A DNA stretch of 20,374 nt from a virus, in the IMG/VR virus record IMGVR_UViG_3300029305_004297. One strand, written 5' to 3'. Of the stretch, positions 9,349 through 10,139 are shown one piece after another. The translations under genes and the position numbers were made by a program. A model generated the notes under the pieces. That model was given only the letters and a program-made list of their open reading frames with translations, did not search any database and had not been told where the DNA came from. Positions within the stretch are counted from its first letter, which is position 1. Each line of letters begins with the position of its first letter.

Positions 9349-9795
9349 ATGACACTAGAAAAACTACAGTCTGAAATGGTTCAGGCCATGAAAAACAAAG
9401 ATAAGCTGCGCAAGTCAGTTCTTTCTGGCATGATTGATGCAGTAAAGAAGGCGTCTATGACCAATAATGGTCGTGTTGAGATTACAGAACCGCTTGTTGA
9501 TGAAGTTCTGTTAAAGTATAAAAAAATGGTTCAGGAGCAGATTGACACTTGCCCCGCTGATCGCATTGAAACTCTTGAAGAGTATAAGGCACAGATGACA
9601 GTTGTTGCAGAATTTGCGCCTAGTTTAATTACTGACGAAACTGAAATTCGATATCTAATTCTTGATATTATTAATAATGAACATGAATTCTCAAAGTCAA
9701 ACAGAGGTGTCCTTATGAAGATTCTTGCGCCTGTGCTAAAGGGCAAGGCTGATATGGGTGCCGTTAATAAAGTTCTTGGAGGGATGCTTCAGTGA
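9349..9795 (+). CDS. GatB/YqeY domain protein
   Basis: LEKLQSEMVQAMKNKDKLRKSVLSGMIDAV...LKGKADMGAVNKVL is collinear with bacterial YqeY (L..L..DLK.AMKAKDK.RL..IR.L.......V.GKADG..VNK.V). RBS AGAGGTGA is present. Confidence 0.7.
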   Translation: MTLEKLQSEMVQAMKNKDKLRKSVLSGMIDAVKKASMTNNGRVEITEPLVDEVLLKYKKMVQEQIDTCPADRIETLEEYKAQMTVVAEFAPSLITDETEIRYLILDIINNEHEFSKSNRGVLMKILAPVLKGKADMGAVNKVLGGMLQ

Positions 9796-10139
9796 TTTTT
9801 GGTAGAACTAACAGTTTTAATAGAGTTGTTATTAACGGTAAATCTATTGATTGTACTGGAAGAAATATTTCTATCCAGAACGGCGAAGTTATAATCGATG
9901 GAAAAGTGATTCAATCCAGTATTGAACGTGACATCAAAGTGGTTGTATATGGTGACGTAAATAAGGTTGACTGCGCTGGCTCTGTTGAAGTGCATGGCAA
10001 TTGTGGTTCCATTGATTGTAGCGGGTCTTGTAAAGTGGATGGCAATGTTAATGGCGACATTGATGCAAGTGGATCTGTGACTTGTGGTAATGTCTCAGGT
10101 GATATTGATTGCAGTGGAAGTGTAAGATGTAGAAGATAA
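9792..10139 (+). CDS. bactofilin-like (DUF583 / CcmA-type) repeat protein
   Basis: GTG start overlaps the upstream stop (GTGA). There are about six tandem repeats of the G-x-V-x-G-D/N-V-x-x-x-x-(C/A)-S-G-S-V type (VYGDVNKVDCAGSVEVHGNCGSIDCSGSCKVDGNVNGDIDASGSVTCGNVSGDIDCSGSV), as in bactofilin beta-helix proteins. Confidence 0.55.
   Translation: MIFGRTNSFNRVVINGKSIDCTGRNISIQNGEVIIDGKVIQSSIERDIKVVVYGDVNKVDCAGSVEVHGNCGSIDCSGSCKVDGNVNGDIDASGSVTCGNVSGDIDCSGSVRCRR

Follow-up and report, generated by a model that had tools for sequence, protein, structure and literature searches.

Whether a phage protein of only 115 residues could serve as a cytoskeletal element of the bactofilin kind is the question raised by this locus. 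Bactofilins are bacterial and archaeal cytoskeletal scaffolds, and a full-text literature search found no study of a phage-encoded bactofilin. A sequence-only reading of the window, which is the whole 20,374-nucleotide stretch of IMG/VR record IMGVR_UViG_3300029305_004297, had proposed such a protein, encoded at positions 9792 to 10139.

A genuine phage gene

The open reading frame at 9792 to 10139 is a real phage gene, with the following features:

9778 to 9783, plus strand: Shine-Dalgarno-like GGAGGG, 8 nt 5' of the GTG, by direct reading of the sequence
9792 to 10139, plus strand: coding sequence of a 115-residue beta-helix protein (PHROG 3163), with a GTG start and a TAA stop at 10137 to 10139
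9792 to 9795, plus strand: 4-nt GTGA overlap between the start of the beta-helix gene and the stop of the YqeY-domain gene

The GTG at 9792 to 9794 lies across the TGA (9793 to 9795) of the upstream frame at 9349 to 9795, which encodes a YqeY-domain protein (PF09424; E = 4.7e-18), confirming the GTGA overlap described in the sequence-only reading. This overlap is specific to the present phage; the gene upstream of the homologs in relatives encodes NadE, an HNH protein, or a hypothetical protein, and coupling to YqeY is a local arrangement. The start position itself is common to homologs (e.g., MIFGKNNSFNKV), and the same genes were called in an identical metagenome contig (L005). Values of dN/dS against seven relatives ranged from 0.11 to 0.23 where dS could be estimated, and the gene is therefore a genuine coding gene. 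Its assignment to a phage was upheld by RecJ, NAD ligase, and DnaE, along with PHROG matches. Near-identical DNA was not found in deposited phages, and a promoter and terminator scan around the beta-helix gene gave nothing above shuffle expectation.

Residues 9 to 114 of the protein align with positions 13 to 120 of the 121 positions in PHROG 3163 (E = 3.7e-22; 79.5 bits). On sequence grounds, the protein is classed as a full-length member of this uncharacterized family.

A 15-residue repeat and a nonrepetitive N-terminal half

Four regions of the protein can be distinguished:

9792 to 9815, plus strand: residues 1 to 8 (MIFGRTNS), a short flexible N-terminal tail with pLDDT below 50 at residues 1 to 4
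9816 to 9950, plus strand: residues 9 to 53, nonrepetitive N-terminal beta-helix windings
9951 to 10130, plus strand: residues 54 to 113, four 15-residue windings, based on the period of 15 and on column conservation
10131 to 10136, plus strand: C-terminal Arg-Arg, a basic end that follows the last winding immediately and lacks a cap

The protein had been described as consisting almost entirely of tandem repeats, which is true of residues 54 to 113 but not of residues 1 to 52, where no significant internal repeat was detected. The period is 15 residues, present in four copies and confined to residues 54 to 113 (z = 8.0 versus shuffles), with the unit G-[ND]-V-x-G-D-I-D-[CA]-[SG]-G-S-V-x-C. The 16-residue pattern offered earlier, GxVxGdVxxxdCsGsV, caught a repeat that exists but is a loose merge of the true 15-residue unit. 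The nucleotide sequence of the gene has no tandem repeat, and repetition is found at the protein level only. Within residues 9 to 53 lies the best-conserved motif of the family, x-I-N-G-K (N15 and G16).

Conserved columns consist of G, D, and S together with core V, I, C, and A, and the repeat's variable x positions are unconserved. Assigning residues to the inside or outside from the repeat register and the strand pattern, we take these x positions to face outward. Nearly all conserved residues then appear to be structural, as turn glycines, Asp and Ser turn caps, or the V/I/C/A core. Eight of the 115 residues are cysteines, and C61, C71, C76, C80, C98, C107, and C113 occupy positions held by V, I, or A in other windings. 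At the C terminus, K or R is found within the last three residues of all 41 close relatives (set A1) and 75 of 93 diverse relatives (set A2). Because the chain ends two residues past the last winding, this end of the core is probably uncapped.

Predicted fold

The AF2 model is an all-beta solenoid (pLDDT, 89.5; pTM, 0.81), a confident prediction that bore out the beta-helix anticipated from the letters. As modeled, the fold is a compact, right-handed, three-sided beta-helix of about 6 to 7 windings, forming a single domain of about 12 kDa. A right-handed helix with a triangular hydrophobic core and about six windings is also what defines the bactofilin fold. A hexapeptide-repeat acyltransferase would instead be a left-handed beta-helix with a hexapeptide period, and neither property was found.

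Foldseek against the PDB returned no match below an E value of 0.2; its hits to the “putative adhesin” structures 4YGU and 3LJY, presumably Toastrack-type structures, were not significant (E = 0.23 to 1.9). Toastrack (DUF4097) was rejected as an assignment, with no match for the window protein and one for a single relative out of 93 (E = 6e-5). Searching the PDB by sequence and by profile did not significantly retrieve bactofilin, and the top matches, molinate hydrolase and NudC, were spurious. The Ca-dependent antifreeze solenoid 3P4G was a PDB match at an E value of 0.006, and a match in BFVD carries the name “Bactofilin.” By its modeled fold, the protein shares a structural class with bactofilin, the FapA beta-solenoid, and the MinC C-terminal domain, to all of which it is probably distantly related.

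Relationship to bactofilin

The only Pfam match of the window protein was to bactofilin (PF04519/DUF583; E = 2e-4). This match scored 21.9 bits, below the gathering threshold of 27.9, and placed residues 72 to 108 on positions 11 to 50 of 98. Formal membership in the bactofilin family thus fails, and what survives of the label “bactofilin-like” is a beta-helix and a weak, subthreshold resemblance over 40 of the 98 profile positions. Among relatives, PF04519 was the commonest match, detected at E < 0.01 in 34 of 41 close and 54 of 93 diverse members (best, 1e-8). About 5 of the 93 diverse relatives reached roughly the level of the PF04519 threshold (E <= 3e-6), a precomputed PF04519 assignment exists for 1 of the 120 closest relatives (P0022), and one phage homolog is annotated “polymer-forming cytoskeletal protein.”

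Aligning the family profile to a 17-sequence BacA/TtBac alignment with hhalign resulted in a probability of 38% over 40 columns, with a bactofilin alignment that was low in diversity because the homolog search gave only Caulobacter-like sequences; against single BacA or TtBac sequences, the probability was 3 to 4%. Only about 2.5 windings align with bactofilin (PF04519/DUF583; BacA of Caulobacter crescentus, 2N3D; TtBac of Thermus thermophilus, 6RIA). Homology to bactofilin would be consistent with these matches. Similarity between solenoid repeats rich in G, V, and D can also arise by convergence.

Several features set the phage protein apart. Bactofilins have disordered tails of tens of residues, whereas the tails of the window protein are 8 (N-terminal) and 2 (C-terminal) residues long. 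Unlike bactofilin, its core is rich in cysteine, its C terminus is basic, and its family is phage borne, with a turn signature of its own, D-[AC]-G-G-S. The polymerization interface of bactofilins includes a Phe, F130 of BacA and F105 of TtBac (PMC12448750), for which no counterpart was found in the window protein, which ends ...GSVRCRR. Of the 41 close relatives, only 1 has an aromatic residue among its last 12 positions, and all 41 have basic ends. The basic C terminus (RCRR) could disfavor tail-to-tail stacking, and it was counted against a polymer.

A large family with scattered relatives

The window protein is an ordinary member of a very large family. It has 162 close homologs, and the PHROG 3163 family comprises about 2,500 clusters at 50% identity, spread over many phage lineages and some bacteria, and is present in 63 of 50,697 deposited phage genomes. 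Phage hosts include Bacillus, Vibrio, Acinetobacter, Aeromonas, Erwinia, Sinorhizobium, and gut anaerobes. Chromosomal copies occur in gut Alphaproteobacteria, and structural matches extend to giant viruses. Because the family falls slightly short of the Pfam bactofilin model, its members are almost always annotated as hypothetical, and the names in GenBank are inconsistent (hypothetical protein, leukotoxin LktA-like, structural protein, and polymer-forming cytoskeletal protein). The domain fusions of longer relatives (Sel1, TRSP, Lar, and YabP-like) are heterogeneous and give no functional clue; part of them are probably gene-call artifacts. The window protein itself had no match in NCBIfam or PADLOC.

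FapA/DUF342 (PF03961) was matched by 26 of the 93 diverse relatives at E < 0.01 (best, 1.2e-7), two of them at E <= 3e-6. Membership in FapA was rejected, with no match for the window protein and listed scores of the relatives under the 31-bit cutoff. The FapA beta-solenoid has a comparable repeat rich in G, V, and D, but FapA proteins are much larger and multidomain, and their Pfam name ties them to flagellar assembly. What the profile matches demonstrate is a weak sequence link of the family to bactofilin and FapA.

Similar solenoids also occur in cellular proteins of Clostridia that carry an XRE-HTH domain (e.g., loci L112, L115, and L118). These share the 15-residue unit, as G-x-V-x-G-D-I-D-x-G-G-S-V-x-x; hmmsearch retrieved them at E values between 1e-22 and 1e-50, and a single protein could contain as many as 8 repeated matches. 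They differ from the phage family in their length of 200 to 700 residues, their N-terminal DNA-binding domain and long C-terminal solenoids, and their lack of the N-terminal x-I-N-G-K half. Continuous solenoids in proteins of this size, built from the same unit, argue that the unit stacks open-endedly. Together with the probable lack of a cap at the helix end, long solenoids of the same repeat are no more than suggestive of nucleotide-independent, nonpolar filaments.

N-terminal tail and the membrane

The membrane-targeting consensus of bactofilins is MFSKKKK (PMC12448750). The N terminus of the window protein resembles it in having hydrophobic residues after the initial Met and a basic residue after those, although the 8-residue tail MIFGRTNS contains just two hydrophobic residues and one basic residue. 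A motif of M(x)F/W plus a basic residue was found in 28 of the 40 closest relatives (70%) and 91 of 267 family members (34%), compared to 23 of 862 control phage open reading frames (2.7%) and 118 of 120 BacA relatives (98%). Roughly one family member in three lacks an N-terminal tail altogether. Like bactofilins, a minority of the relatives carry a transmembrane (TM) anchor in place of the targeting motif; a TM-like N-terminal extension replaces the tail in 9 of 267, paralleling the approximately 3.2% of bactofilins with TM anchors (PMC12448750). The tail may therefore, as in bactofilins, bind membrane. Counted against this were the single basic residue in the tail of the window protein and the tail-less third of the family.

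Gene neighborhood

In the window, the beta-helix gene belongs to a block of replication and NAD metabolism genes, and two genes lie downstream of it:

10222 to 11136, plus strand: HNH homing-endonuclease-like gene, inserted between the beta-helix and ligase genes, with PHROG matches to HNH endonuclease and endonuclease VII
11117 to 13045: NAD-dependent DNA ligase gene

Relatives without the HNH gene (L004, L008, and L014 to L018) have the ligase gene 3 to 17 nt after the beta-helix gene, and adjacency to NAD ligase represents synteny inside one phage clade. A neighbor constant across lineages was sought, and none was found, a result counted against the scaffold reading given below. An SPFH/vault-like gene (2801 to 5188) is located 4.6 kb upstream of the beta-helix gene in the window, and an SPFH gene directly adjoins the homolog in two distant lineages (Acinetobacter phage Herod and a Saccharibacteria genome), but of 80 related viral loci, only 3 have one less than 10 kb away. 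The cytoskeletal filament that, in the sequence-only reading, might position a vault-like compartment is speculative. A Bax1-I gene follows 16 to 17 nt downstream in about 30 viral loci, and a “membrane protein” gene abuts the homolog in Bacillus phage Emiliahah. The Bax1-I, SPFH, and “membrane protein” genes adjoining in several lineages were counted in favor of a membrane tether.

Scaffold, adaptor, or other functions

The reading we favor, at a probability of about 0.45, is a bactofilin-like scaffold that associates with itself end to end and is probably peripheral to the membrane. As the conserved residues are nearly all structural, we propose that the protein has no catalytic site and would act through its shape. 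Uncapped helix ends would allow end-to-end self-association into dimers or short polymers, and the M-I-F-G-R tail could weakly tether these to the host membrane on its inner face, in the manner of MFSKKKK in bactofilins. Tethered assemblies may then act as a scaffold or adaptor for membrane-associated proteins of the phage or host in the early or replication phase. Self-association, polymerization, the scaffold role, and the timing of expression are what we infer from the features described above.

The main competitor, a possibility that we hold to be less probable, is a beta-helix that does not polymerize and works as an adaptor, decoy, or inhibitor, capping or blocking one partner via a face or an end. 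Host bactofilin, a division protein of the MinD/FtsZ type, or a defense protein could be such a partner, and an open end of the solenoid might just as well cap a filament of host bactofilin. This would suit a very small, tail-less protein whose basic C terminus and missing polymerization Phe speak against tail-to-tail assembly of the bactofilin type, and whose gene, in most phages, is surrounded by small accessory or early genes; one relative has a Tad8 anti-defense gene nearby. However, no conserved surface patch is evident besides structural residues, PADLOC gave no match, and the hosts range from Bacillus to gut anaerobes, with chromosomal copies in gut Alphaproteobacteria, a breadth that argues against a single specific host target. 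Another explanation, in which the protein mimics the MinC C-terminal beta-helix, binds MinD or FtsZ, and blocks or misplaces division during infection, is improbable. None of the 93 family members matched MinC_C (PF03775) at E < 0.01, while bactofilin and FapA were matched repeatedly; the alignment to MinC spans only 60 to 70 residues of generic windings (4V02, 1HF2, 6RIQ, and 5XDM), and the N-terminal FtsZ-inhibitory domain that completes the two-domain architecture of MinC is absent.

Two further explanations are at least as improbable. The cysteines could make the protein a metal- or cluster-binding minisolenoid, with C76, C80, C98, and C113 coordinating Zn or Fe-S for a redox or metal-dependent function. 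C76, C80, and C98 do not vary within the close clade, where C113 shows 95% conservation, in a protein with this many cysteines for its length. In the wider family, however, position 76 has C in 62% of members and A in 28%, position 80 has C in 44% and V in 39%, and position 113 has C in 49%. Such free replacement, at repeat positions held by V, I, or A elsewhere, indicates a pattern of small hydrophobic core residues rather than ligands; the spacing is not of the CxxC type, and AF2 predicts the fold confidently without metal. A minor virion component, such as an accessory solenoid of a fiber or baseplate, fares just as poorly. Its basis is the annotation of the Emiliahah homolog gp233 as “structural protein,” for which the record gives no grounds, and a profile match to the baseplate assembly protein chain 9cuy_Y that is not significant (E = 0.43). 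The beta-helix gene, in the window and in nearly all relatives, is located in regions of replication, nucleotide metabolism, or small early genes and not in morphogenesis modules.

Implications

A broader form of the scaffold reading would have many phage lineages carrying a minimal bactofilin, a 12-kDa, membrane-tethered, nucleotide-independent polymer that serves during infection as an inner-membrane scaffold. It would organize membrane-associated partners such as SPFH/vault-like cages and Bax1-I-type channels, or else the machinery for replication and NAD salvage that neighboring genes encode. We regard this extended version as doubtful, well behind both the scaffold itself and the adaptor. 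If the protein does not polymerize, it would be a compact solenoid adaptor, and either way the family merits a profile of its own. If it forms polymers on the membrane, the protein would add a new cytoskeletal element to those of phages, one of very small size and easy to test, and a phage bactofilin would constitute a third kind of phage cytoskeleton beside tubulin-like PhuZ and the actin-like proteins.

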